A stretch of DNA of 64,000 nt from an uncultured Eubacteriales bacterium (GTDB taxonomy: Bacteria > Bacillota > Clostridia > Christensenellales > CAG-917), in assembly GCA_900548005.1 (NCBI GenBank), contig URIZ01000006.1:7816-71815 (forward strand), in the 5' to 3' direction. Within the stretch, counting starts at the first letter, position 1; every line of letters starts with the position of its first letter. Under the pieces are notes generated by a model, which searched no databases, had not been told where the DNA came from, and saw nothing but the letters and a program-made list of their open reading frames with translations. A program made the translations under genes and the position numbers. Shown here in pieces: positions 8,757 to 60,230 of the stretch.

Positions 8757-8842
8757 AACCTTATAATAAACTATTTGGTTGATCAAATAATACTATATAA
8801 TGACAGAATCGAGATACGATTTACAAGCCCGATAACAAAGAG

Positions 8843-8867
8843 TCCTGACGATTGTCAGGGCTTTTTA
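8843..8867 (+). terminator. Candidate rho-independent terminator after the AraC gene
   Basis: CCTGAC-GATT-GTCAGG hairpin followed by GCTTTTTATTA. Confidence 0.45.
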
Positions 8868-8972
8868 TTATACTCAAATTCAACGACTATTTCTTGTTAC
8901 GACAAAATTACAGGCATATTTGTCGACGAGCCTTTTTATTGCATCGTGAAACTTTAATTCCCCCAAAATAGC

Positions 8973-9012
8973 AAAAAAAAAGAATACAAGTTGAGGGGTT
9001 CAACTTGTATTC
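8973..9012 (-). terminator. Strong rho-independent terminator (minus strand)
   Basis: 13-bp perfect stem GAATACAAGTTGA/TCAACTTGTATTC with loop GGGGT (8982-9012). On the minus strand it is followed by a run of nine U (A9 at 8973-8981 on the plus strand). Confidence 0.6.
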
Positions 9013-9126
9013 TGACCGGTGGAAAGGATTTGAACTAATCCGCACCGTAAGGAGTGGTTGGTGTTTTTTCAAGGTTGAAACGCAGTTTGTGTCGGCGGTT
9101 TATAACGTAAAGTATCTCAAAATGGA

Positions 9127-9705
9127 TTGTTTGGTCTAGGATTGCAAGATAAAATCCCTAACTTGCAAGAACGTATCGACCATATCTTCCACAAGCAACT
9201 TTTCGGCATTGCAATCACGGAACTAACAAGTCTGTTATCCCGCCGTAGCCTGTATTGCTCAAAATATCCAAACGGCGAATACTCGATTTCTCATTTCGAC
9301 ACCGCCGAAGGCAATACCCGTTTTCGCAAAGTAAACCACGTTTTTGTCGGCGGCAAGTGCAAATATTGCGGTGCGTCAGAAGCCCAATGGAAACGAGAAG
9401 AAGGCAAAGAAACTCACGCATATGAATTTATACACACAGAAAACCCGGAGAAAATATTCAATATGAAATTTGACGTAATTATATCTAATCCACCTTATCA
9501 ATTATCAACATCGGAAATAGAAGGAAAAGCAAATGCAATACCTATCTATCAGTTGTTTGTAAACATGTCAAAAAAACTTTCACCAAATTATTTTACAATG
9601 ATTATTCCTTCACGATGGATGACTGGTGGAACTCGTGCATTGGATGAGTTTAGAGATATGATGATTAAAGATCAAAGAGTTTCTGTATTTATAGACATTT
9701 GTTGA
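9127..9705 (+). pseudogene. Fragment of an N6-adenine DNA methyltransferase (Eco57I/TaqI-like, NPPY class)
   Basis: 192-aa ORF with motif IV DVIISNPPYQ and downstream IIPSRWMTGG..LDEFR. There is no SAM-binding motif I, and stops lie just upstream in frame. The only start is TTG. The ORF ends in three consecutive in-frame stops, TGA-TAG-TAA (9703-9711). Confidence 0.6.
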
Positions 9706-13640: not shown

Positions 13641-16301
13641 TTATTGATTCTTTCCGCAACAATTCTTGTATTTGAGACCGCTGCCGCACGGACAAGGATC
13701 GTTTCTGCCCACTTTCTTTTGTTGAGCGACGCTCTTTTGGGCGGTTGCGATGTTTTGTCTTACTTCGGCTTTTGAGCCGTCTTCTCTCTTTTCCACGTGG
13801 ATTTTGAGAAGGATGGACGCCGTCTCTGAGTGTATTCTCGACACCATGTCTTCAAACATATCCCAGCCTTCTTGGCGGTATGCGATGACGGGATCTCTTT
13901 GTCCGTAGCCGCGAAGTCCGATGCCTCGGCGCAGTGCGTCCATGGCGTCGATATGTTCCATCCACTTGGAGTCAACGGTCTTGAGCAGCACCACTCTTTC
14001 AAGCTCTTTGAAGTCAAAGCCTTCCTTTTCGAGAGCGTCCACTTTGTCATTGTAGTCCTTGTTGGCGATCTTGAGCACCGCTTCTTTGAGCTTGTACACA
14101 TCGTAGCAAGAGCAAAGTTCGGGCGTCATAAGATTTGTGCCTTGGGGGATCATTTTCTTTTCCAGAGCAGTGTTGAACGCCTGATAATCCCACGTCTGAT
14201 AGTCCGTCTTGTAGTCGGCATAGTAGCCGATGATTTCTTCTGCAAGGTCGTCTATCATGTCCATGATTTGCTCGTGAACGTCCATGCCGTCAAGCACTTT
14301 GCCGCGCTCTTTGTAGATAAGTTCGCGCTGAGCGTTCATCACGTCGTCATAGCTCAACACTTGTTTTCTTATGGAGTAGTTTCTGCCTTCGACAAGACGT
14401 TGCGCCTTTTCGATTTGCTTTGTGATGATGCCGTTTGAGATAGGCACGTCGTCGCCGAGATTCATAGCCTCGGCAATGGTTTTCATTCTGTCACCGCCGA
14501 AAATACGCGCGATGTCGTCTTCCATTGAGATGTAGAACACCGTGCTGCCCGGATCGCCCTGACGACCGCTACGGCCACGCAACTGGTTGTCTATACGGCG
14601 GCTTTCGTGACGTTCCGTGCCGATGATTCTCAAGCCTCCCAATTCCGCCACCTTTGCTTTTTCTTCATCACAAATGGCTTTGAATGCTTCGTAGTGGTGC
14701 TTGTACACTTCCTTTGCGGCGATGATTTCGGGATCTTGGCTTGCGTGCGGAGAAGATGCAAGCTCGATGACTTCAAGCGGATAACCGTTCTTTTCCATCT
14801 TTTGCTTGGCTTGGAATTCCGCATTGCCGCCCAGCATAATATCCGTTCCGCGACCTGCCATGTTCGTTGCGATAGTCACGGCGTTGAGCCTGCCCGCTTG
14901 AGCGATGATCTCGGACTCTTGCTTGTGGAATTTTGCGTTCAACACGTTGTGAGCAATGCCCTTTCTCTTCAAAATATTGCTGAGTTCTTCGCTCTTTTCA
15001 ACGCTTATCGTGCCCACGAGAATTGGTTGTCCCGTTGCGTGATGATCGATGATATCTTGCACGATTGCGGTGATTTTGCCGCTGACTTTGGTGTAGATTT
15101 GGTCGTGTTCGTCCACTCTTCTTGACGGTCTGTTGGGCGGAATGGTGACAACGTCAAGGCGATAGATGCCTTCAAACTCGTCTTCTTCGGTCTTTGCCGT
15201 GCCCGTCATACCCGAGAGTTTCTTGTACATGCGGAAGAAGTTTTGGAAAGTGATTGTCGCAAGCGTCTTGTTTTCGCTTCTTATGGCAACGTGTTCTTTT
15301 GCTTCGATCGCCTGATGCAAGCCTTCGTTGTAGCGGCGGCCGATCATGATACGTCCCGTAAACTCGTCAACGATAAGCACTTCGCCGTCACTGACGATAT
15401 AGTCCTTGTCGCGTTTCATCATAAAGTGCGCTTTCAACGCCGCTTGAATGTGGTGATACAAGTCGGTATTTTCAAGGTCGGTGAGATTGACGACGTGGAA
15501 GAATCTTTCCGCTTTCTCAACGCCTTGGTCGGTGAGCATAATTGATTTTTCCTTTTCGTCAATGGTGAAATCGTCACCTTCTCTGCATTGGCGAGCAAAG
15601 TTGTCCGCGCTCTTGTACAGCTCGCTCGACTTGCCGCCCCTTCCCGATATAATAAGCGGAGTTCTTGCCTCGTCGATGAGAATGGAGTCCACCTCGTCGA
15701 TGATTGCAAAATTCAGCTCGCGTTGCACCTTGTCTTGCTTTCTGACCACCATATTGTCGCGAAGGAAGTCGAACCCAAGCTCGTTGTTGGTGCAATAGGT
15801 TATGTCGCTCTCATACGCCTTGCGCTTGTCTTCCGAGCTCATCCCCGGCACGACAACGCCAACCGTAAGCCCCAAAAACTTGTAGAGCTTTCCCATCCAC
15901 GCCGCGTCACGAGTGGCAAGATAGTCGTTGACGGTGACAACATGCACACCCTTGCCCGTAAGCGCGTTGAGATACGCGGGCAGTGTTGCCACAAGCGTCT
16001 TGCCCTCACCTGTGCCCATCTCGGCGATACGACCTTGATGCAAAGCGATGCCGCCGAGTATCTGCACGTGGAAGTGGCGCATACCAAGCACTCTTTCGGC
16101 AGCTTCTCTCACAAGCGCGTATGCGTCGGGGAGAATATGATCGAGATCTTCGCCGTTTGCAAGCCTGTCTTTCAGCACCGCGGTTTGCGCAACGAGAGTG
16201 TTGTCGTCCATATCCGCATAGACGGGAGCGAGAGCCTCAACCTTTGCGGCTATCTTTTCAATTTTCTTGATTTTGAATTTGTTTTCGTTAAAAAGCGACA
16301 T
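13641..16301 (-). CDS. secA: Preprotein translocase ATPase SecA
   Basis: 886-aa ORF with Walker A MGTGEGKTLVATLPAYLNAL, DEVD box (IIDEVDSILIDEARTPLIISG) and a C-terminal zinc finger CPCGSGLKYKNCCG. Confidence 0.97.
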   Translation of the reverse strand: MSLFNENKFKIKKIEKIAAKVEALAPVYADMDDNTLVAQTAVLKDRLANGEDLDHILPDAYALVREAAERVLGMRHFHVQILGGIALHQGRIAEMGTGEGKTLVATLPAYLNALTGKGVHVVTVNDYLATRDAAWMGKLYKFLGLTVGVVVPGMSSEDKRKAYESDITYCTNNELGFDFLRDNMVVRKQDKVQRELNFAIIDEVDSILIDEARTPLIISGRGGKSSELYKSADNFARQCREGDDFTIDEKEKSIMLTDQGVEKAERFFHVVNLTDLENTDLYHHIQAALKAHFMMKRDKDYIVSDGEVLIVDEFTGRIMIGRRYNEGLHQAIEAKEHVAIRSENKTLATITFQNFFRMYKKLSGMTGTAKTEEDEFEGIYRLDVVTIPPNRPSRRVDEHDQIYTKVSGKITAIVQDIIDHHATGQPILVGTISVEKSEELSNILKRKGIAHNVLNAKFHKQESEIIAQAGRLNAVTIATNMAGRGTDIMLGGNAEFQAKQKMEKNGYPLEVIELASSPHASQDPEIIAAKEVYKHHYEAFKAICDEEKAKVAELGGLRIIGTERHESRRIDNQLRGRSGRQGDPGSTVFYISMEDDIARIFGGDRMKTIAEAMNLGDDVPISNGIITKQIEKAQRLVEGRNYSIRKQVLSYDDVMNAQRELIYKERGKVLDGMDVHEQIMDMIDDLAEEIIGYYADYKTDYQTWDYQAFNTALEKKMIPQGTNLMTPELCSCYDVYKLKEAVLKIANKDYNDKVDALEKEGFDFKELERVVLLKTVDSKWMEHIDAMDALRRGIGLRGYGQRDPVIAYRQEGWDMFEDMVSRIHSETASILLKIHVEKREDGSKAEVRQNIATAQKSVAQQKKVGRNDPCPCGSGLKYKNCCGKNQ

Positions 16302-16366
16302 ATTTCACCTTTCTATATTCGCCATAAGGCGCATGCGCCTGCGCGCACGATTTTTTTCGATTTACT

Positions 16367-16395
16367 ATTATACACTATATCGGTGTATATTTCAA
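16367..16395 (-). promoter_or_regulatory. Candidate sigma-70 promoter of secA
   Basis: Minus strand reads TTGAAA, 17 nt, TATAAT, about 65 nt upstream of the secA ATG. Confidence 0.5.
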
Positions 16396-16489
16396 CAAAG
16401 TTTTCACACCCGACAAGTTTTTATAAGTTCTCGGTTCTACAAGGTTATACATGTAAAACTTAAATGCAACTTTCCCCTTTCCTCAGGTG

Positions 16490-16865
16490 TTTTCCCTATC
16501 ACCGTTCCCCCTTGCAAGGGAACCCACGGTGACCGCGTGGCGGGGGACAACACTCAGCACTCGCATAGATAGGTATCGTTCTCTTATTATGCCACCACGC
16601 TTTGTGCGCCAGGCAGTAGCCAACAACACGGCGCAGTCGCTCGTACAAATCGTTAAGCTCGGCGTTCGATACGGTCGCCGCCGTTGCGGCTCCAATTCCG
16701 TCTTCAAATAAGCACATTCCGTTTATAAGTACGCCCTGAATAAGTTTTCGTTTCGGGCGCAACCCAAAAACTTTGTCATTGCGAGCTTGCGTGGCAATCT
16801 CGTGGAAACGGAACGACAAAATTTTTCTGCGCCCGCGCCACAATTATTCATTATTAATTATTAAT
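16490..16865 (-). ncRNA. Conserved structured non-coding element, copy A (possible raiA-motif-like RNA; unverified)
   Basis: Long sequence blocks are shared with 50381-50715 on the other strand. Helices between blocks are kept by different sequences. A nested hairpin is GGGCGCA...TGCGCCC. No credible ORF. It lies directly 3' of comFC and upstream of the secA promoter. Strand is inferred from the comFC direction and one U.G pair that would be C.A on the other strand. Confidence 0.5.
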
Positions 16866-17774
16866 TTTATCCTGCTTTTTCCCTTCTTCCATAGGAATTT
16901 TCAGTGTGGTAACCGCGCTTGTAAGCACGTTCACTTCTCTTGCGCCGGCTTTGAGCAACACTTTTGCGCACTCGTTGGCGGTTGCGCCGGTCGTAAAAAT
17001 ATCGTCAATGAGAAGAAGTCTGCGGTTTTTCACTTGCTCGAACGCGCAAGAGAATGCGCCTTCGAGGTTGATTGCTCTTTCTTTGCCGTGCAATTCCTTT
17101 TGCGCCGACGTATCTTTTATCTTCACGAGTGCGGGCAGGACGGGGATATTGAGCCTTCCGCCCACTTCATAAGCGAGCAATGCCGATTGGTTGAATCCGC
17201 GCTTTTTCTCTTCCTTTTGCGTCATTGGCACAAACACGATTATGTCCGCTTGCATGCCGCTTTTCAAAAACTCGTCCGCCATAAGCGCGCCGAGCGTTTG
17301 GGCAATATACTTCTTTCGCCCGAATTTGAGCGCGTATATCATCTTCTTTGTTTCGCCTTCATAGGTGAGCGGAGAGCGGTTTTTCACAAACGCGAATTTC
17401 TCGTATTGACAACGATTGCAGTAGTCCGACTCGTCTTTGAGCGGCATGCCGCACGACAAGCACCTATGCTCGCCCACAAACGGCAGTTTTTCCACGCACT
17501 CGGAGCAAAGACGGTATCTCGTGTCCGCCACAAGCTCTTCTCCGCACACGTCGCAAGTGCAATTCATCGGATACAGTGCGTCCTTGAACGCCGCAAGACA
17601 CTTTTTCAAAAACTCACTCGCCTTTTTCTTGCGGGCAAGACGTTTTTGTTTGCGTATTCCCTTTTTGTCTTCCGATTGTTCGATTGTTGGGGCGCATTCT
17701 TTGTTGTCTTTGTCGTCAAACAAGCCTTTTTGCTCGTCATCTGGCGCAAAATTCTTGTCACCACTCATACGCAC
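16854..17774 (-). CDS. comFC: ComF-family protein (phosphoribosyltransferase domain, zinc-ribbon N-terminal part)
   Basis: 306-aa ORF with CDVCGEEL...CSECV...CLSCG..CNRC cysteine pairs and the PRTase motif RRLLLIDDIFTTGATANE. It has a ~70-aa K/D/E-rich N-terminal extension. Confidence 0.85.
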   Translation of the reverse strand: MRMSGDKNFAPDDEQKGLFDDKDNKECAPTIEQSEDKKGIRKQKRLARKKKASEFLKKCLAAFKDALYPMNCTCDVCGEELVADTRYRLCSECVEKLPFVGEHRCLSCGMPLKDESDYCNRCQYEKFAFVKNRSPLTYEGETKKMIYALKFGRKKYIAQTLGALMADEFLKSGMQADIIVFVPMTQKEEKKRGFNQSALLAYEVGGRLNIPVLPALVKIKDTSAQKELHGKERAINLEGAFSCAFEQVKNRRLLLIDDIFTTGATANECAKVLLKAGAREVNVLTSAVTTLKIPMEEGKKQDKINN

Positions 17775-28930: not shown

Positions 28931-29396
28931 ATATTCACTCCTTAAAAAAATTGCCTTGGATTGCGATTTGCAAAAAAACTTTTCGGTTTCTGAAAAAAAT
29001 TTTTTCGACCGCCAAAAAATTTTTTCATAAATCTACGCTTTCGTGCGGTTTTGCCATAAAAACATAAGTCTTTATAACCCCCTACCCCCAAAAACGCTCT
29101 GTTTTAGGGGTAGAAATTTGCATTATTGCGCAGTTTTCTATTGTATAGGAAAAAATCAAGACTGTCAAGCGTCGCGCGCATAAATTTTTTATTATTTTTT
29201 AATTTATTTTATATATTTATCGCACGCGAGCACGTTGCGCGTTTCATTAAAGACAGCGGCGAGAAAAATGGTGGTTGGTGAAAATTGTATTATGGGAATA
29301 ATAGTATGGGAATATTGCTTGGAAATGGTTGTTGGTAAATTTGAGGTTGTTGAGAAGACAAATCTCGGGTTTTTATAAAAAATGAGTGCGCTCTAT

Positions 29397-29425
29397 TGAA
29401 AAATCACGGGCGGCATAGTATAATT
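29397..29425 (+). promoter_or_regulatory. Consensus sigma-70 promoter abutting the S4-domain gene start
   Basis: TTGAAA (29397-29402), 17-nt spacer, TATAAT (29420-29425). The ATG at 29431 lies only 5 nt beyond the -10 hexamer. Confidence 0.55.
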
Positions 29426-29430
29426 TTGGT

Positions 29431-40511: not shown

Positions 40512-40826
40512 TTATTGAAGATTTGGATTCCATTGATATTTGTTCAAATCGACGTAGCCGTCATTGTCCACTTCGATGCCGTCCGCGCGCAAAAGAGCCG
40601 CTTGTGCATCCGCGCCGCCAAAGGCGAATGCAGGGGCGCATTTGCCAAAGCGATTGACCACTCGAAAACACGGGATATGTTCGGGATCGGGATTGAAATG
40701 CAAGGCATAGCCCACCGCTCTCGATGCGCGCGGTGAGCCGCAAAGCGCGGCTATTTGCCCATAGGTTGCCACTTTGCCGCTTGGTATTTTCTTGACCTGT
40801 CGATATACGACATCATAAAAACTCAT
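40512..40826 (-). CDS. MGMT-family (alkyltransferase DNA-binding domain) protein with variant active site PCFRV
   Basis: 104-aa ORF. VATYGQIAALCGSPRASRAVGYAL...IPCFRVVN matches the short MGMT-family pattern, except Phe replaces the canonical His. Confidence 0.8.
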   Translation of the reverse strand: MSFYDVVYRQVKKIPSGKVATYGQIAALCGSPRASRAVGYALHFNPDPEHIPCFRVVNRFGKCAPAFAFGGADAQAALLRADGIEVDNDGYVDLNKYQWNPNLQ

Positions 40827-40840
40827 AGTGCTTATATTGA

Positions 40841-40887
40841 CAAAAACGGCGGTTTATATTCGCATTGCGCCGATATAAACTGCCGTT
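40841..40887 (-). terminator. Terminator after the mrp / C-GCAxxG-C-C gene pair
   Basis: 15-bp stem AACGGCGGTTTATAT/ATATAAACTGCCGTT (one non-Watson-Crick pair). On the minus strand it is followed by UUUUUG. Confidence 0.55.
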
Positions 40888-40895
40888 TGTTTGTT

Positions 40896-41363
40896 TTATT
40901 GCTTTATTATGCCACGCTCTATAAGAAACTGTTCAAGCACTTCGGCGGCGTCTCCGCACATCTTTGCGCACGGGCGCGTGCGATAGTATTCGGGAGTGCG
41001 AGCGTCGGGAGTCGGATTGGTAGTGGCTCTTGCACCAAGAATTTCACGACAGACGATAGAGCCGTTTATCTCTTTGAACCGTCTTGCAAGCTCTTGTATT
41101 CTGGCATAATGTTGCGCCTTTTGCGCTTGCGCGTCGGGCGCATCGGGATAGGAATAACCTTCGAGCAAGCCTTCCACGATAAACATGCCGCTCACCGCTC
41201 CGCACACTTCTCTGAGCCTGCCCATGCCGCCGCCAAAGGACGAGCAAAGCATAAGTGCCTGTTTGCCTTCAAAGCCCGTGACGTCCGAAAAGGCGAGCAC
41301 CACCGCTTGCGCGCAGCTGTATCCGTCAACAAAATTCTTTTCTGCAATTTCGCGTCTTGTCAT
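40896..41363 (-). CDS. C-GCAxxG-C-C family protein
   Basis: Start moved to ATG 41361-41363 (MTRREIAEKNF...). GYSCAQAVV, CSSFGGGMG...CGAVSG and the C-terminal PCAKMC are present. Confidence 0.8.
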   Translation of the reverse strand: MTRREIAEKNFVDGYSCAQAVVLAFSDVTGFEGKQALMLCSSFGGGMGRLREVCGAVSGMFIVEGLLEGYSYPDAPDAQAQKAQHYARIQELARRFKEINGSIVCREILGARATTNPTPDARTPEYYRTRPCAKMCGDAAEVLEQFLIERGIIKQ

Positions 41364-45246: not shown

Positions 45247-45379
45247 TTCCAATTCTCCTTTGTACCAAAAATTATGCATATAGCACTGTTTTTAAATTTT
45301 ATAGGATTTTTTCCTATATGTCAATACTAAATATGGAATTTTTACTATATTTTGTTTAACAATAAAAAGGAGTGACGGT

Positions 45380-45589
45380 ATGGATATTAGAAAAAGTGTT
45401 GGAAAAAATTTGAAAATGGCACGCAAAGCCGTCGGTCTCACTCAAAAACAAATTGCCGAAGAACTTGGCAAGTATCAATCAGATTATAGCGAATACGAAA
45501 CAGGAAAAATAGAATTGGATTATGAAAAAATCATATTCCTTTGCAAAAGACTTGATATAACCCCAAACGATTTATTTGATTTTCATTAA
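45380..45589 (+). CDS. Small XRE-family HTH regulator (69 aa)
   Basis: SD AAGGAG. LKMARKAVGLTQKQIAEELGKYQSDYSEYETGK is an XRE-type HTH. It is divergent from the large zinc-ribbon gene. Confidence 0.85.
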   Translation: MDIRKSVGKNLKMARKAVGLTQKQIAEELGKYQSDYSEYETGKIELDYEKIIFLCKRLDITPNDLFDFH

Positions 45590-45590
45590 C

Positions 45591-45621
45591 AAAAAGAACG
45601 GCAAAATGTGCCGTTCTTTTT
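45591..45621 (+). terminator. Terminator of the XRE gene
   Basis: AAAAAGAACGGC-AAAATGT-GCCGTTCTTTTT. Confidence 0.7.
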
Positions 45622-45685
45622 CAAATCATAGCTTTATTGTGCGGATTTTGCGATATAAACTGTCTTTTGTGCAAAAATACGCTTT

Positions 45686-48644: not shown

Positions 48645-50116
48645 TTATCTCCGTTTGTTTCGATGTACACGTCAAGACCTTCCGCCGTCAACGCTCTGAC
48701 GAACTCTTTTTCAAGGTGTGAAGATTTGAAAGTCCTTGAGAACGTCAGCACGCACTCGTCTCCGAACGTCACGCCGGCAAGTTTGTAGCCCGAGTCCTTA
48801 GGCTCTTTCAAGCAAAACTCCACTCTGTCCACAATCTCGGACAATTCTTTGGGCGGATTTAGGCGTCCGTAGTTTGAAAAGTCCATAGACACGGCTTTGT
48901 TGTCCATGATATATTTTGTGATTTTGAGCCCTATATCTTTGAGCGCAAGCGGCACAAGCGCGATAAATTTGTTGCGTTCTTCACGCATATTCGCGTTGAC
49001 GTTCTCTTGCAAATATTTTTCGTTGAGTTGCTCTTTGAAGCACTCTTTGACCGCGTCCACGTATGCTTGGATGCCGCCGTCCACGCTGTCTTTGAGCGTC
49101 ACGTCAAGATAGAACGAGAAGTTGCGCACCGTGTCGGACGGGAAGAATTTGCGAAGATTGACAGGCACTCTTGCGTTGATGTCCTTGTTGCTGCCCTCTT
49201 TCTTGCGCATATCGAACATGATGCCGAATATGATCGCAAGCACGTATTCCGTGATGGTTGCGCCGTATTCTTTCGCCTTTTGGTTGAGCTTCGATGCGGA
49301 AGTGATCACGTGAGTCATCACGCCGTGGCGAGCCTTGGGGAGCTTGGGGATATAGGTGAAATTGATCTTTCTTTTTGCGTAGTCGTGCTTTTCGGCATAC
49401 ACTTGAAAGCTGTCTTCGATCTCGGTGGGAGTGGGCAAATCGCGATAGTCCTTTGCGCTCTTGTAGTCTTCGATTCGCTTGCCAGTCTTGATCTCGTAGT
49501 ATCTTGCAAGCAAACTCATAAGGAAAGTCGAGCCGCCCGTGCCGTCCGTGATGCTATGGAAAAACTCGCATCCGATTCTGTAATCGCTGTACACCACTCT
49601 GAAAAGATAGCGTTTGCCGTCAAGCGGAATGGGTTGGAACGAATAAAGGCTCTCTTTCTCCACTCTGGGCTTGAAAGGCAATCTCTCAAAATAGTACCAA
49701 AACGCGCCGCGCTTGATGGTGACCATAAGCGTGGGAAATCTCGGCACGAGATCGTCAAGCGCTTGTTGCAAAATCTCGCCGTCTACTCTCTCCTTCATCA
49801 CCGCCGCAAAGCGGAAGTGCGTGCTGTATTCGTTTGAAGAAGATGACGGATACACTTTTGCCGCGTTGTCGAGCTTGTACCACTCGGTCGGATCGAAAAT
49901 ACTCTCCTTCTTCTTGCTCTTCACCGTGCCTTCAACAAGAGAATCGTATTGAACGCCGAAATACCTTGAAATCGCTTCCAAAGTCTTTTGATCCACGTCT
50001 TCACCGTCTTCGGCTTTTTGGATCTCTTCAACGTCGATCGACAAGCGTTTTGCAAGCTCGTCAACCGTGAGATTCTTGTCTTCTCTGAGTCGTTTTATAG
50101 ATTTTGAATACTCCAT
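48641..50116 (-). CDS. XRE-type HTH fused to a condensation/alcohol-acetyltransferase-like acyltransferase domain
   Basis: 491-aa ORF. The N-terminal IKRLREDKNLTVDELAKRLSIDVEEIQKAEDG is an XRE-type HTH. The catalytic-type motif FHSITDGTGG (HxxxDG) sits at about residue 195. Confidence 0.75.
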   Translation of the reverse strand: MEYSKSIKRLREDKNLTVDELAKRLSIDVEEIQKAEDGEDVDQKTLEAISRYFGVQYDSLVEGTVKSKKKESIFDPTEWYKLDNAAKVYPSSSSNEYSTHFRFAAVMKERVDGEILQQALDDLVPRFPTLMVTIKRGAFWYYFERLPFKPRVEKESLYSFQPIPLDGKRYLFRVVYSDYRIGCEFFHSITDGTGGSTFLMSLLARYYEIKTGKRIEDYKSAKDYRDLPTPTEIEDSFQVYAEKHDYAKRKINFTYIPKLPKARHGVMTHVITSASKLNQKAKEYGATITEYVLAIIFGIMFDMRKKEGSNKDINARVPVNLRKFFPSDTVRNFSFYLDVTLKDSVDGGIQAYVDAVKECFKEQLNEKYLQENVNANMREERNKFIALVPLALKDIGLKITKYIMDNKAVSMDFSNYGRLNPPKELSEIVDRVEFCLKEPKDSGYKLAGVTFGDECVLTFSRTFKSSHLEKEFVRALTAEGLDVYIETNGDK

Positions 50117-50380
50117 ACTTCCATTCCGTCGAAAATTTATTTCGCATTGTGCAAATACTTATTAATACAAAAAGCTGACATAATGCATTTATTAGGACAC
50201 TATCTTAACACGCCAAGTCACTTTCGTCAAACGATTTGCCTTTGCCGTCCCGTTTTTATACTTTTATTACAACCCGTCCGACATCGCGCCCGCGCATAAT
50301 GCGCACACGTATATACACGTGTACGCATTTAAAAGGAATGTGCAATTTCAAAGACGAACACGAGCCACAACGGCATAATA

Positions 50381-50715
50381 ATTAATAATTAATAATGAAT
50401 AATTGTGGAAGGCGAAGCCTTATCCAAAAGCCTATTCGGAGCGTACTTATACACGGAATGTGCTTATTCGAAGTGAGCGTTCGCAAGGCGAACGCCGAGA
50501 TAAGCGCCGAGCAAGACGGTTGTACGAGAATGCGTGGCACTGTGTTGCGCAAGCCGCCACGCAGGCGAAGTGGCATAACAAGGGGACGATACTTTTCTAT
50601 GCGAGTGCCGACTGTCTTCCCCGTGAGCGATGTACACTTTTGTAGAGAAAGCACTCTATACGAGTGGTGGAAGAAATACCGGCGCGGACCGGAAAGATGG
50701 GGCAATTCTATTTAG
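50381..50715 (+). ncRNA. Conserved structured non-coding element, copy B (paralog of 16490-16865)
   Basis: It shares the 28/28 block ATTAATAATTAATAATGAATAATTGTGG, the 31/33 block GCGTACTTATACACGGAATGTGCTTATTCGAAG, and CGAACGCCGAG, TTGTACGAG and the GTGGCATAA...TCTATGCGAGTGC...TCCCC block with copy A. Hairpins AAGGC-GAA-GCCTT, GCGTTCG-CAAGG-CGAACGC, TGCGTGGC/GCCACGCA and TCTTCC/GGAAGA are present. Confidence 0.5.
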
Positions 50716-50816
50716 GGTTTCAAACGTTCACCCCTTGTAGAGCCGTGAACAATATGCGCCTTACGGCTGGATGTTTCGACAGGCTCAACATGACGATATG
50801 GAAAATTTGATACAGC

Positions 50817-50866
50817 ACCCGAGCATGCGTAGCGGAGCGTACACGTAGTACGTGAGCAACACACGC
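50817..50866 (+). repeat. 50-bp perfect direct repeat, copy 1 (GTAC-hairpin module)
   Basis: ACCCGAGCATGCGTAGCGGAGCGTACACGTAGTACGTGAGCAACACACGC, identical to 51175-51224. Confidence 0.95.
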
Positions 50867-50870
50867 ACAG

Positions 50871-51035
50871 CCGGAACAAAAGCCGTCATCGCGGCAACGG
50901 CATCGCTTGCTTACAAGCAACGCCGAAAGCCGTATTAGGCTTGTTGTTCTGCTAACCGCGCCGAAAATCTTTGCTATCAGTTTAGTTACGGACAAAAACT
51001 TCTGCCGCAATTTCGCAAGATTGTCGGCTTGGTGT
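50871..51035 (+). repeat. 165-nt repeat module, copy 1
   Basis: It aligns by eye end-to-end with the reverse complement of 58391-58551. Differences are scattered substitutions and one 3-nt indel. Confidence 0.9.
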
Positions 51036-51174
51036 TTAGATTGGGTGGGACACCCACAAATGCGTCCCTTGCCGAAAAGCAAACGGCAAGAGCCAAGGAA
51101 GACGAGAACGAGTAGCGGAATGTACTTTGTACCAAGAGATAATCAGACACAGAGCAAGCGGCGAAAGTCAAGGA

Positions 51175-51224
51175 ACCCGAGCATGCGTAGCGGAGCGTAC
51201 ACGTAGTACGTGAGCAACACACGC
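51175..51224 (+). repeat. 50-bp perfect direct repeat, copy 2
   Basis: Identical to 50817-50866. The two copies start 358 bp apart. Confidence 0.95.
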
Positions 51225-51238
51225 GCAGGGTGACGAAG

Positions 51239-51269
51239 AAAAAAGCACGGCAAGAAATTGCCGTGCTTT
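51239..51269. terminator. Terminator after rpsI (hairpin usable in both directions)
   Basis: AGCACGGCAA-GAAA-TTGCCGTGCT. It is flanked by A6 on one side and TTTGTTTT on the other. Confidence 0.7.
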
Positions 51270-51294
51270 GTTTTCGTCGCTTGAATGCGTCTGA

Positions 51295-51705
51295 TTATCT
51301 CTTGGAGAATTGGGGTGCTTTACGAGCCTTATGCAATCCGTATTTCTTGCGTTCTTTGGCTCTGGGGTCACGAGTGAGATATCCTTCTTTCTTGAGGATA
51401 GCTCTGTATGCTTCACTGTCTGCAACGCAGAGTGCGCGAGCGATGCCGTGACGGATTGCGCCTGCTTGACCGGTGTAGCCGCCGCCGTACACGTTGACGA
51501 GAACGTCAAACTTGTCGGAAGTGCCGGTTGCCACGAGCGGTTGATTGACGATGAATTTCATCGTGTCAAGCGGGAAGTACTCGTCGAGAGTGCGTTTGTT
51601 GATGACGATATTGCCGTCGCCGGGGATAAGGCGAACTCTTGCGATTGCCGTCTTTCTTCTGCCGGTGCCGAGATATTGAACTTTCTTGGTTTTCTTAGTA
51701 GCCAT
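51295..51705 (-). CDS. rpsI: 30S ribosomal protein S9
   Basis: 136-aa [17 protein letters not shown] and the C-terminal [17 protein letters not shown] are present. Confidence 0.97.
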
Positions 51706-57355: not shown

Positions 57356-58063
57356 TTATTTTTTGTTTTTCTTTTTTGCGTCGAAGGCGGCGATTTCTTT
57401 GTTGAAGTCGATCTCGGTGAGCTTGCCTTTGTTGGCAAGATAGCAATGCTTGCCAAGCGCAAAGATGTATCTGTCGTGATCAAGACTGTCGCTAAATACG
57501 TTCTCAACTTCCACATCGGGCAAAATCTCGTTCAATCTGCGCACCTTCTCTTCTTTGCGACACACTTTGCCAAGCAAGTGTCCGTTGTCCTTGCTGTGCG
57601 GACTTGCGATGCAATAGTCGATCTTCATGCGCCTTGCGATCTCTTCGATGAGAAAATCGGGGCTTGCGCTGATAAGCACGGTTTTTCTTGACGGATCGCG
57701 ATTTTCGGGCTTGAAAAAGTCATAAATATCCTTTTCATGCTTGTCCCAATACTTCTTCACCGTCTTCTCGGTGTTGACGAGCTTGACAAAATTGAACGCG
57801 ATTTTCTTGAAGATAGGCACGGGCAAAATCTTTGTGACCATCAAAAAGCCCCAAAAAAGTTGGAACGGCAAAAGAATCAACGTCCACGGACAATGCAACA
57901 TGCTCCAATACCAATAATGGAGCGCGCTGTCGTACGGGATTGCCGTTTTGTCGAAATCATAAATGTCAACCGTGATTTTTTCACCATTTTCCATAGTGTA
58001 TATTGTATCAAACTTTTCAACGCAATACAAGAGCGAAAAATCAAAACTTGAAAAATGCATCAC
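57356..58063 (-). CDS. HAD-superfamily hydrolase (HAD-IB-like)
   Basis: DFDKT motif I (DIYDFDKTAIPY), ISASP motif II and the downstream SDSLDHD. The start is uncertain: GTG 58063 in the track, or ATG 57992-57994 (MENGEKITVDIYDFDKT). Confidence 0.75.
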   Translation of the reverse strand: MMHFSSFDFSLLYCVEKFDTIYTMENGEKITVDIYDFDKTAIPYDSALHYWYWSMLHCPWTLILLPFQLFWGFLMVTKILPVPIFKKIAFNFVKLVNTEKTVKKYWDKHEKDIYDFFKPENRDPSRKTVLISASPDFLIEEIARRMKIDYCIASPHSKDNGHLLGKVCRKEEKVRRLNEILPDVEVENVFSDSLDHDRYIFALGKHCYLANKGKLTEIDFNKEIAAFDAKKKNKK

Positions 58064-58390
58064 CGCCGCAAAATTTGTATCTTAAACCACAAACCCGACA
58101 TAAGTAAACATTGTCGAAACATTCGGGTGTGGGTGTCCCACCCTATCTGTCATGTTGTCAATACAAAGCGGAGCAACTTGCTTGCAAGGGTTGCGTAGCG
58201 TATGTATTCACGTAGCAACGCCTTTGAAAAAGGCGAAACCGCAGGTTTCTATGCGCAAGCATAGCAGTTGCGAGTAGCCTGCCGAAACATCCAGCCGTAA
58301 GGCGCATATCTTGCTTTTTCTTTTCGCTACGCTAGATTCTTCGATTCTCTCAGAATGACAAGGAAAAATTTAGAATTTCACCGCTTAAAA

Positions 58391-58551
58391 ATACCAAGCC
58401 GACAATCTCGCGAAATTGAGGCAGGAGTTTTTGTCCGTGTCTGAACTGTCAAAGATTTTCGGCGCGGTTAGCAGAACAACAAGCCTAATGCGGCTCTCGG
58501 CGTTGCTTGCAAGCAAGCTATGCCGTTGCCGCAATGACGGCTTTTGTTCGG
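58391..58551 (-). repeat. 165-nt repeat module, copy 2 (inverted relative to 50871-51035)
   Basis: Its reverse complement aligns with 50871-51035. Confidence 0.9.
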
Positions 58552-58560
58552 AACAAGAAA

Positions 58561-58621
58561 GGCACGGCTTGAAACAAAACCCAACGTACATTTAGTACGT
58601 GATTTTGGAGCAAGCCGTGCC
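58561..58621. repeat. GTAC-hairpin module H-b
   Basis: 11-bp closing stem GGCACGGCTTG/CAAGCCGTGCC. Apical ACGTAC-ATTTA-GTACGT. It is preceded on the plus strand by GAACAAGAAA. Confidence 0.8.
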
Positions 58622-58682
58622 TGACAAAGTTATTCGCAGTTTGGTGTATAAACGAGCGCGATATTTAGATGAAGAACAAGAA

Positions 58683-58745
58683 AGAGCCACGCTAACGGCA
58701 ACCCTAATGTACACATAGTACATGAGTTGACGGGAGCGTGGCTCT
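58683..58745. repeat. GTAC-hairpin module H-a
   Basis: 11-bp closing stem AGAGCCACGCT/AGCGTGGCTCT. Apical ATGTAC-ACATA-GTACAT. It is preceded on the plus strand by GAACAAGAAA. Confidence 0.8.
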
Positions 58746-58775
58746 GCCGCAGTCATTCGCTAAATAGCGCGCTCG

Positions 58776-60230
58776 TTAGTCGCGCTCGTGAGCAACGTTG
58801 AAATCCTCATAATAATTCAATGGCACGCAATCAAACGTATTGTCTTTCTTCAACTCGATGCGGGTGCAACCGCGTTGAGAGTGCTTTTTGAAGATGCCGG
58901 GATAGGCGAGATAGTCAACGGACATGCCGTAGGTAAGACGGATTGAACGGTCTGCTCCTGCGGGCGTGTAGTTGACGGAGAAGTTGTTGTAGTGGTCGTG
59001 ACCGCAGAACACGCCTTGCATGCCGTGGGTGAGGCCCGTTTCAAACAACTCGTCGGATCTGCTGCCGCAGAAGACGCCGTAGGTGCGAACGCCGTTCTTT
59101 TTCTTGTCGGTCTCGCCCATTTTGCCGTAGATAAACTCGGTCTTGCCGCGCTCTGTTTCAACGGTTTTGCCTTTGGTCATGGTTTCGCCGCTGTCGATGA
59201 CGTTTGCCCAAGCGTTGCGGTACTCTTCAAGCGGAATGTGGAAGAATGCAATGTTGTTGACGGTGTTATTGTTGTTGTGGTCTTTGGACAATCTTTCGAT
59301 CTCGGTTGCGTACCAATCGATTTGGCATTGGTGGATGTTGTCATACTTCCACGCCATTCCGAAATAGTCGCCGTCCGTGTAGCTGTGGCTGTCGAAGGTC
59401 ACAACCGTTTGATTGATAGAGCCGTCGCTGTTCTTGACCACGATCATGTCGTTGCCAAAGCCGCGAGCGTCATTGCCGATGTAGTCCTTCTTGTCGCAGA
59501 AACCGCGGCGGAAAAGGCAATACTTGAAACCTGCATTCTCATAGTAATCGCAGATTTCGTCACGGGAGTAGAGGCTGTAAAGCTCGGTGTCGTGGTTGCC
59601 GAACGCAAACGTCCAATATACGCCGAGAGTTTCCATCATGTTGGAGAAGATCTTGGTTGCGTTGAGATTGTTGAACGTACCCGATTGCACAGGCACGGGG
59701 TATGCAATGTCACCGGTGACAACCACAAGGTCGGGTTGCTCTTGTCTGATCATGGTGGCAACCGCGTTCATAGCCCACGCGTCTTTTTGGTGAGTGAAAC
59801 TGCCGCCGCCGATATGTACGTCGGTGAATTGCAAGATCTTGAATTCTCTGCCGTCTTCCTTGGTGAACGTCCAATATCCGTTGCCGCTTTCCTCGGGCTT
59901 TTGGGGCGCGAGTTGCGTGTGAGCGGTGTATTCGACCTTGCTGTAGGAAGTGGCTTGTTGAATAAGACCTTTTGTGCCGACTGCCGTTGCAATTGCGCAG
60001 CCGCTGAAGAAGATCACGATTGCAAGCACAATGCTGCCCGTGATGATGAGAGCTTTTGCCGTGCGTTTTTTCTTTTGTTCGGGAGTGAGTTGCTTTTTGG
60101 CTTTTTTGCCTTTCTTTTGCGCTTTCTTCTCTTCTTGATCGGAAAGGATGCCTTCTTTTTCGAGCGTTTCGTCCGCAGTGGCGGTTTCGTCTTGCTCGGT
60201 GGCGATTTCGTTTTTGATTTCGTCGCTCAT
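58776..60230 (-). CDS. Membrane-anchored metallophosphoesterase (calcineurin-like)
   Basis: 484-aa ORF with a K/E-rich N-terminus, one TM helix, then FTDVHIG, VTGDIAYP, FGNHD and GHDH motifs. Confidence 0.85.
   Translation of the reverse strand: MSDEIKNEIATEQDETATADETLEKEGILSDQEEKKAQKKGKKAKKQLTPEQKKKRTAKALIITGSIVLAIVIFFSGCAIATAVGTKGLIQQATSYSKVEYTAHTQLAPQKPEESGNGYWTFTKEDGREFKILQFTDVHIGGGSFTHQKDAWAMNAVATMIRQEQPDLVVVTGDIAYPVPVQSGTFNNLNATKIFSNMMETLGVYWTFAFGNHDTELYSLYSRDEICDYYENAGFKYCLFRRGFCDKKDYIGNDARGFGNDMIVVKNSDGSINQTVVTFDSHSYTDGDYFGMAWKYDNIHQCQIDWYATEIERLSKDHNNNNTVNNIAFFHIPLEEYRNAWANVIDSGETMTKGKTVETERGKTEFIYGKMGETDKKKNGVRTYGVFCGSRSDELFETGLTHGMQGVFCGHDHYNNFSVNYTPAGADRSIRLTYGMSVDYLAYPGIFKKHSQRGCTRIELKKDNTFDCVPLNYYEDFNVAHERD

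Follow-up and report, generated by a model that had tools for sequence, protein, structure and literature searches.

The 64,000-nt stretch analysed here (contig URIZ01000006.1 of an uncultured Eubacteriales bacterium; the whole stretch is called the window below) carries two diverged copies of a structured, non-coding element: copy A on the minus strand between comFC and secA, and copy B on the plus strand downstream of rpsI. We found the element to belong to a dispersed family, of which uncultured human-gut Clostridia of a narrow clade carry dozens of copies in each genome. Probably it represents a new, lineage-specific family of non-autonomous, modular interspersed repeats of the kind of BOX and of the bacterial interspersed mosaic elements (BIMEs), spread by recombination or by an enzyme acting in trans, with a fold that would belong to the element's own single-stranded form.

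The original prediction regarded the two loci as diverged copies of one structured non-coding element, and they can indeed be aligned end to end (50370-50760 on the plus strand with 16880-16420 on the minus strand) at a mean column identity of 74%. Three blocks are common to both copies: the 29-mer AATTAATAATTAATAATGAATAATTGTGG at the 5′ end (50380-50408 (+) in copy B, 16866-16838 (-) in copy A), GCGTACTTATAnACGGAATGTGCTTATT and GTGGCATAAnAAGnGnACGATACnTnTCTATGCGAGTGC. Each of them occurs twice in the window, where 100 shuffles gave an expectation of 0. The copies carry different hairpins at equivalent positions with conserved blocks in equal order, so that the predicted arrangement of conserved linkers with variable helices between them is confirmed in the alignment. 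No reading frame is kept between copies A and B and the overlapping open reading frames (ORFs) of 106 and 114 amino acids are not conserved; the element is therefore non-coding, and a protein-coding reading was rejected. We set the bounds of the element (50376-50750 and 16868-16415) by 13-15-mers in common with related loci. The loci had been predicted correctly, but homology continues 35–75 nt further 3′ than assumed, to the limits at 50750 and 16415 with the end sequence CTTGTAGAG/ACCGnGAAC. A core-profile search of the window yielded a total of two copies and one fragment (50335-50374):

50376..50750, plus strand: copy B, complete element (AT-rich module, P1 and body; module types U1/D1); bounds from k-mers in common with at least three other loci, the alignment and full-length-profile positions 2-379
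16415..16868, minus strand: copy A, complete element (AT-rich module, long P1 and body; U2/D2), between the comFC stop and the secA promoter
16555..16595, minus strand: conserved core of copy A
50335..50374, plus strand: partial further copy (3′ half of M2 and 5′ half of H2), based on a partial profile match to core positions 8-54 and the sequence itself; it abuts the AT-rich end of copy B

Module architecture of the element

Full-length copies are hairpin-rich, measure about 330–450 bases and show one fixed order of parts: an optional 5′ module, P1, M2, H2, a linker, U, the core, D and a 3′ tail. In copy B, where all hairpins listed by the original prediction were found at their places, these parts are as follows:

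50380..50408, plus strand: AT-rich 5′ module, optional, made of TAATAAT-type repeats with GAATAATTGTGG at their end; as a 29-mer it is the same in copies A and B
50409..50421, plus strand: P1 hairpin AAGGC-GAA-GCCTT; at least three alternative forms occur at this position
50432..50473, plus strand: M2 block CTATTCGGAGCGTACTTATACACGGAATGTGCTTATTCGAAG, with which the body usually begins at its 5′ end; 54 of 154 full-length-profile matches begin at profile positions 40-59
50477..50495, plus strand: H2 hairpin GCGTTCG-CAAGG-CGAACGC around the conserved CGCAAGGCG
50500..50528, plus strand: conserved linker ATAAGCGCCGAGC..GACGG..TTGTACGAG; expansion site in other copies
50531..50563, plus strand: U hairpin, type U1 (TGCGTGGC/GCCACGCA)
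50570..50610, plus strand: conserved core GTGGCATAACAAGGGGACGATACTTTTCTATGCGAGTGCCG, the anchor for the collection scan
50611..50698, plus strand: D domain, type D1, with an outer helix TCTTCC/GGAAGA plus CCGT/GTGG, an inner hairpin TAGAG/CTCTA and a hairpin CCGG/CCGG
50615-50674, 50643-50658 and 50679-50692, plus strand: positions within D1 of TCTTCC/GGAAGA, TAGAG-AAAGCA-CTCTA and CCGG-CGCGGA-CCGG, respectively
50699..50750, plus strand: 3′ tail with GGGGCAATTCTATTTAGGGT, a C/A-rich stretch and the terminus CTTGTAGAGCCGTGAAC; 81 of 154 profile matches end at positions 350-379 and the terminus varies

Matches to the full-length profile (154 in total, many of them to truncated copies) start at position 1-9 in 27 cases or at 40-59 in 54 cases and end at 350-379 in 81 cases. 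The clustering of starts and ends therefore defines a body of ∼320 nt, with the AT-rich and P1 part being optional. The AT-rich module is present in 17 of the 89 copies anchored by an exact core match, 27 of the 154 profile matches begin there, and the number of TAATAAT units differs among copies. At the P1 position other copies show GTGGGACACCCAC or a long hairpin of ∼85 nt, the latter in copy A. The M2 block is repeated at the 3′ side of 20/59 complete elements compared to 13/2000 control positions, the flanking repeat spanning 15–45 nt. M2 also forms the unit junction where copies lie in head-to-tail arrays (L031, at a period of ∼320 nt). The linker reads ATAAGCGCCGAGC...GTACrAG in general form, and the conservation of its GCCGAGC and GTAC.AG across 77 copies is 90% or higher. 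More than 12 copies carry an expansion of 84–208 nt (∼160 nt in most) at profile position ∼145, in which no ORF was found.

Most positions of the 40-nt core show a conservation of 90% or more in 77 near-full copies from many assemblies. On its two sides, the U site comprises 43 distinct variants that fall into three unrelated stem classes, and the D domain exists in three unrelated forms, D2 or D3 standing in for D1 in other copies. All nine combinations of U and D types occur; copy A combines U2 with D2, copy B U1 with D1. The 'compensatory helix changes' predicted between the two copies are mostly swaps of whole modules and not point covariation. The 3′ tail has the general form GGGGnAAT-TGCATTTAGrGT, followed by ∼15 C/A-rich bases and CTTGTAGAG.

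Copy number, host range and turnover at orthologous sites

A pattern of 20 fixed core bases (ACGATACNNNTCTATGCGAGTGC), run against a collection in which every GTDB species is represented by a single genome, gave 89 matches in 87 stretches of 13 species-level assemblies. The NCBI titles of all 13 read Christensenella sp., Clostridia (bacterium) or 'Firmicutes bacterium CAG', with the human gut as source. The complete 1.65-Mb chromosome CP091723.1 holds 21 exact cores and the metagenome-assembled genome (MAG) CAAFLX01 holds 19. A core profile built from 44 copies and run on the fetched loci and the window gave 145 matches, of which 77 were near full length; as 54 of the matches lack the exact anchor, true copy numbers are higher than the exact-core counts. 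Many exact-core matches lie at contig ends, which is expected since repeats break assemblies. The suggestion that the element belongs to a normally single-copy class of housekeeping RNA is untenable in view of the 89 exact-core copies in 13 assemblies, the 145 profile matches, the lack of any Rfam match and the empty orthologous sites described below.

In CP091723.1, 13 of the 21 exact-core copies are located within 0.68-1.01 Mb, ∼20% of the genome, which suggests that the repeats are regionally clustered in this chromosome. A blastn search against phage and plasmid collections yielded no match and the core pattern was absent from IMG/VR. The lone IMG/VR match, to a 19-nt M2 pattern, was at chance level and came without other similarity; a phage or plasmid origin was rejected. 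A literature search returned no paper with the core sequence and nothing relevant on repeats in Christensenellales.

Comparison of orthologous sites demonstrates that both window copies are insertion polymorphisms that are gained, lost and rebuilt between strains and species. Relatives with 91%, 85% and 83% identical SecA have the gene order recD2-comFC-secA-prfB-tsaD in synteny with the window, and their comFC-secA gap spans 101–160 nt and contains no element. In a relative with 97% identical SecA an element occupies the site, but it is of type U3+D1 and lacks the AT/P1 module. The element supplies the comFC stop codon in both strains: in the window the comFC frame enters copy A and its stop TAA sits within the AT-rich module (16854-16868), in the 97% relative the stop is provided by the M2 block. 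Therefore the C-terminus of ComFC differs between strains (...MEEGKKQDKINN, ...MENS and, in a relative without the element, ...VESNDGTSQI). The secA promoter (TTGAAA-17-TATAAT, 16395-16367) follows directly 3′ of copy A.

The second site behaves similarly. In eight contigs with identical RpsI the gap between rpsI and the gene of a helix-turn-helix (HTH) protein measures 398, 478, 638, 686, 761, 836, 1022 and 1271 nt, and 1178 nt in the window. Besides the window only 2 of the 8 contigs (L104 and L098) carry the element here, one of them without AT/P1, and the empty alleles show a short M2-like remnant at its place. Further loci add to this picture: an element upstream of secA in opposite orientation (L035), elements at orthologous sites that are empty in the window (L053 and L001) and, in another species, an element with different modules downstream of rpsI (L064).

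The numbers of repeat units differ between the strains with identical RpsI, and the rpsI-side gap is therefore a variable stack of repeat modules. Two gaps of the window are filled by such mosaics, 50751-51228 and 58122-58749. A 164-nt module containing AACAAAAGCCGTCATCGCGGCAACGGC... has two copies in the window, inverted relative to each other (50874-51037 and 58389-58549, 90% identity); a GGGTGGGACACCCAC hairpin lies directly 3′ of it at ∼51044-51058, and the module adjoins element copies in up to 16 related loci. We also observed a 54-nt direct repeat with 98% identity and a distance of 358 nt (50817-50870 and 51175-51228) as well as a 34-nt module with an inverted copy 7.5 kb away (50752-50785 and 58276-58309). 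At 58060-58776 the window has only other modules, whereas the orthologous gap of CP091723.1 (L001 4380-5400, flanks 93.6% identical) holds a full element. A hairpin module of ∼100 nt (AGAGCCACGC...GCGTGGCTCT, flanked by TTCGCTAAATAGC) is common to both alleles of this gap and borders many element copies elsewhere. The long ORF-free gaps at 8757-9609, 28931-29430, 40737-41184 and 45280-45685 have no 15-mers in common with the fetched element loci and are thus devoid of this family.

The segment 50117-50314, which the original prediction had counted to the element, lies outside of it and is instead the conserved region upstream of the 491-amino-acid HTH gene: identity is 96–97% in 6 of the 8 strain contigs with identical RpsI and ∼90% in one more (L099). 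A near-perfect palindrome (GCGCATAATGCGC, then CACACGTATATACACGTGT) is found at 50290-50330, upstream of this HTH/AATase-like gene. MicroRNA models matched it only at chance level. Conservation of the region up to position 50314 was seen in every strain compared. The palindrome may be an operator for the HTH protein.

Strand-specific fold and genomic context

RNAalifold applied to MAFFT alignments of mixed types was uninformative and gave no reliable global secondary structure because unrelated modules misalign; helices were therefore tested within module classes. In class U3, 7 of 9 pairs are changed on both sides of the helix with 99% of the cells being paired. This degree of covariation was reached by 0/500 shuffles, and no slid register came close. 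Further compensatory variants were found in U2 and H2; the outer pairs of H2 vary yet stay complementary (GCCGC/GCGGC, GUCGC/GCGAC, ACCGC/GCGGU and GUUCGC/GCGAAC). The three D1 helices are 98.7%, 86.6% and 98.2% paired among 30 D1 copies, one pair being C-G in 16 and U-A in 14 copies and one G-U pair being kept in 27 of 30.

The fold depends on the strand. In all of the 77 near-full copies the plus strand of the element gives the more stable fold (-88.1 versus -74.2 kcal/mol), and G-U pairs make up 14.5% of its pairs compared to 8.0% on the other strand. The plus strand is G-rich (31.6% G, 21.7% C) at an overall G+C content of ∼53%. As a cruciform in duplex DNA would not show such an asymmetry, a single-stranded form is implied, and from its sequence this form appears to be under selection. 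We infer that it is RNA more likely than DNA.

Rfam models found nothing at gathering score over the window and nothing at E ≤ 10 over either copy (16200-17000 and 50000-51400). Scans at E ≤ 10 of the loci of eight relatives likewise left the element itself unmatched; a genuine signal recognition particle (SRP) RNA was detected in locus L055, which shows that the method works on these genomes. In the relatives the Gut-1 motif (RF01706) was matched four times: at L031 1-77 (+), L028 944-1025 (+), L028 4926-4993 (+) and L064 4612-4689 (-), the scores, in descending order, being 53.8, 51.9, 46.9 and 42.6 bits with a gathering score of 50 bits. All four matches lie directly 5′ of element copies and are co-oriented with them, in the slot that the AT-rich module takes in the window copies, which themselves are without a Gut-1 match. 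Gut-1 and the AT-rich block are apparently attached through one common junction, TTGTGG. Some copies appear to have Gut-1 as an alternative or optional module at their 5′ end. For Weinberg et al. (2010) Gut-1 was probably a non-coding RNA, its known occurrence being 'human gut only' (PMC2864571). It has hosts and loci in common with the element, but is itself a 77-nt motif of hairpins spaced by GTGATAT; Rfam has no entry for the large element that follows it downstream.

Every sampled copy is intergenic. With ORFs called by a simple longest-ORF rule, flanking genes were arranged in tandem in 30 cases (19 with the element antisense, 11 sense), convergently in 17 and divergently in 5, and no orientation bias relative to the flanking genes was detected. 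Orientation was also unbiased with respect to local GC skew (29 versus 26), a rough skew calculated in 8-kb windows. Clustering of 409 flanking ORFs returned only scattered housekeeping families and no recurrent transposase, nuclease or reverse transcriptase; an associated partner gene was accordingly rejected. Scans for promoters and terminators called none for the element itself. The original prediction considered the AT-rich 28-mer either a shared promoter or an element part. The block is indeed a 5′ module common to both copies, but the promoter reading is weak: the best fit combines a -10 box AATAAT (5/6) with a -35 box ATAATA (3/6), no promoter was called and the module is present in only about a quarter of the copies.

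Relation to known repeats and origin of the family

Among the known repeat classes the organisation of the element is closest to the pneumococcal BOX and to BIME/NIME mosaics, while being unusually long, core-conserved and strand-specifically structured. Croucher et al. (2011) characterized BOX, RUP and SPRITE as modular, structured intergenic repeats enriched between convergent genes (PMC3049150). BOX of Streptococcus pneumoniae, with the arrangement boxA-boxB(n)-boxC, is intergenic like the element, present in ∼100 or more copies and composed of modules that may be missing or occur repeatedly. BOX is further predicted to form stem-loops on transcription, provides stop and start codons for its neighbours and is over-represented away from divergent promoter regions (PMC3049150). 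As a stem-loop-rich intergenic unit of ordered modules, some of them optional or repeated, the element shares this type of organisation. The resemblance is in organisation only, as its sequence is not homologous to boxA, boxB or boxC. Moreover, the element is longer (∼330–450 nt), has a 40-nt invariant core and a strongly strand-asymmetric fold, and bears alternative non-homologous modules at fixed positions instead of a variable number of one module.

Gaps that consist of variable chains of short repeat modules and form strain-variable hot spots are a feature in common with repetitive extragenic palindromic (REP) sequences, BIMEs and the Neisseria intergenic mosaic elements (NIMEs). BIMEs are composed of REP palindromes in alternating orientation and are linked to REP-associated tyrosine transposases (RAYTs) (PMC2817692). 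In contrast, the modules studied here are co-linear and co-oriented within one unit of ∼320 nt, and among the flanking ORFs we found no RAYT or recurrent transposase-like ORF near any copy. MITEs (miniature inverted-repeat transposable elements) such as RUP, Correia and Nezha are similar in being non-coding, non-autonomous, multi-copy, intergenic and insertion-polymorphic with a highly base-paired predicted structure. The element is likewise small, non-coding, multi-copy and polymorphic in its presence; it differs from MITEs in having neither terminal inverted repeats (TIRs) nor target-site duplications (TSDs) and in not being AT-rich overall (G+C ∼53%). To our knowledge there is no related insertion sequence. 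Membership of both copies in a known insertion sequence or MITE family had been named as an outcome that would speak against the original prediction: in spirit this applies, as they belong to a repeat or MITE-like family, but not to a known one.

In the repeat-family model, copies would spread and be homogenised by recombination with one another or through an enzyme acting in trans. M2, which often stands at both ends, may serve as the crossover site, and the solo M2 at empty sites may be its remnant. The selected fold would belong to the element's own single-stranded form and not to host mRNAs. Effects on neighbours would be incidental, such as the replaced comFC stop, the adjoined secA promoter and the padded region downstream of rpsI.

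Several observations weigh against this model. We found no TIR of at least 10 nt joining the ends of copy B and none spanning the ends of copy A, the consensus ends being unrelated (AATTAATAAT... versus ...CTTGTAGAGCCGTGAAC), and comparison of filled and empty alleles at comFC-secA and rpsI revealed no TSD; the classical definition of a MITE therefore does not apply. Filled and empty alleles differ by replaced segments and not by clean insertions, so that true transposition is only putative, and homologous recombination together with transformation could be enough to explain everything. A mobilising enzyme was not found among the flanking ORFs. A core conserved to at least 90%, covarying helices and a strand-specific fold go beyond the constraint that a selfish repeat in decay would require; judged by sequence this constraint would fit an RNA with a function of its own. 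Finally, the census and the context statistics are biased, since sampling relied on one exact 20-base anchor and 8-kb windows; in addition, MAG assemblies collapse repeats.

That the copies are multi-copy genes for a trans-acting structured RNA is rather unlikely. Each gene would be transcribed from its own 5′ module, with the AT-rich block acting as promoter and the P1 hairpin protecting the 5′ end; a protein or nucleic acid partner would be bound by the core, the variable helices would act as a scaffold and turnover would reflect birth and death of genes. The strong helix covariation, the conserved G-U pairs, the preference for the plus strand in 77/77 copies and the conservation of the core to at least 90% across species agree with such a function. 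So does the position of P1 just downstream of the -10-like AATAAT. Orientation is independent of flanking transcription, so that an RNA that matters would require transcription of its own, and Gut-1, an alternative 5′ module of the same elements, has been judged a likely non-coding RNA (PMC2864571). Yet the AT-rich module scores poorly as a promoter and occurs in only about a quarter of the copies, no terminator follows the element, many copies are truncated and no partner protein is encoded nearby. Even close strains differ at orthologous sites in that a copy may be missing, inverted or assembled from other modules, which would not normally be expected of a needed gene.

A more speculative and in our estimate unlikely variant is an undescribed ornate multi-copy RNA with Gut-1 as its 5′ accessory that propagates via its own single-stranded form, either by being copied back into DNA in the manner of short interspersed nuclear elements or by serving as scaffold or guide for an enzyme encoded elsewhere. 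If true, propagation through the single strand would explain why the one-strand fold and the 40-nt core are conserved while copies come and go.

We consider it improbable that the element derives from a single-strand-DNA transposon or a guide RNA whose enzyme is encoded elsewhere, that is, from a palindrome-associated element of the IS200/IS605 type or from an orphan IscB/TnpB omega-RNA like HEARO. HEARO, the IscB omega-RNA and other transposon-borne RNAs are multi-copy, several hundred nucleotides long and strand-specifically structured, with variable helices on a conserved scaffold. The element resembles them in its copy number, its length of ∼300–450 nt and its conserved scaffold, in its strand-specific hairpins with G-T/G-U pairs, in lacking TIR and TSD and in the variable stretch just before its 3′ terminus. 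No covariance model for HEARO or any other Rfam family matched the element at E ≤ 10, though, and none of the 89 copies adjoins a TnpA-, TnpB- or IscB-like ORF or another nuclease or transposase ORF. Insertion of IS200/IS605 elements is tied to the replication strand, but the orientation of the copies shows no bias relative to local GC skew (29 versus 26), as far as the rough skew from 8-kb windows can tell. Neither a fixed 5′ flank nor a conserved short target is visible at the 5′ junctions, although the AT-rich end is itself variable.

It is highly improbable that an RNA gene with a housekeeping role or an association with comFC, such as one of the raiA-motif type, was duplicated and diverged here: raiA-motif RNAs are usually found downstream of comFC and copy A is structured and lies directly downstream of this gene, but no raiA or other Rfam match was obtained at E ≤ 10 (RNase P, tmRNA, SRP and 6S RNA included), secA and not raiA/hpf comes next, the site is empty in syntenic relatives and dozens of copies per genome, 21 or more in one chromosome, reside beside unrelated genes. 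Copy number and empty orthologous sites refute a housekeeping-RNA duplicate.

For annotation, a false lead, the duplicated housekeeping RNA, is hereby replaced by a defined repeat family, which accounts for a number of the large ORF-free gaps and for many breaks between contigs in assemblies of an abundant uncultured gut lineage. The orphan Gut-1 motif gains a host clade and a larger structural context. Copies alter gene ends, as seen for the comFC stop, and promoter-proximal DNA, as seen for secA, and are convenient strain markers. Bacterial interspersed repeats do not usually combine module shuffling, strong strand-specific helix covariation and rapid gain and loss at orthologous sites. This combination recommends the family for studying in which form such repeats exist: RNA, single-stranded DNA or nothing but recombining duplex DNA.

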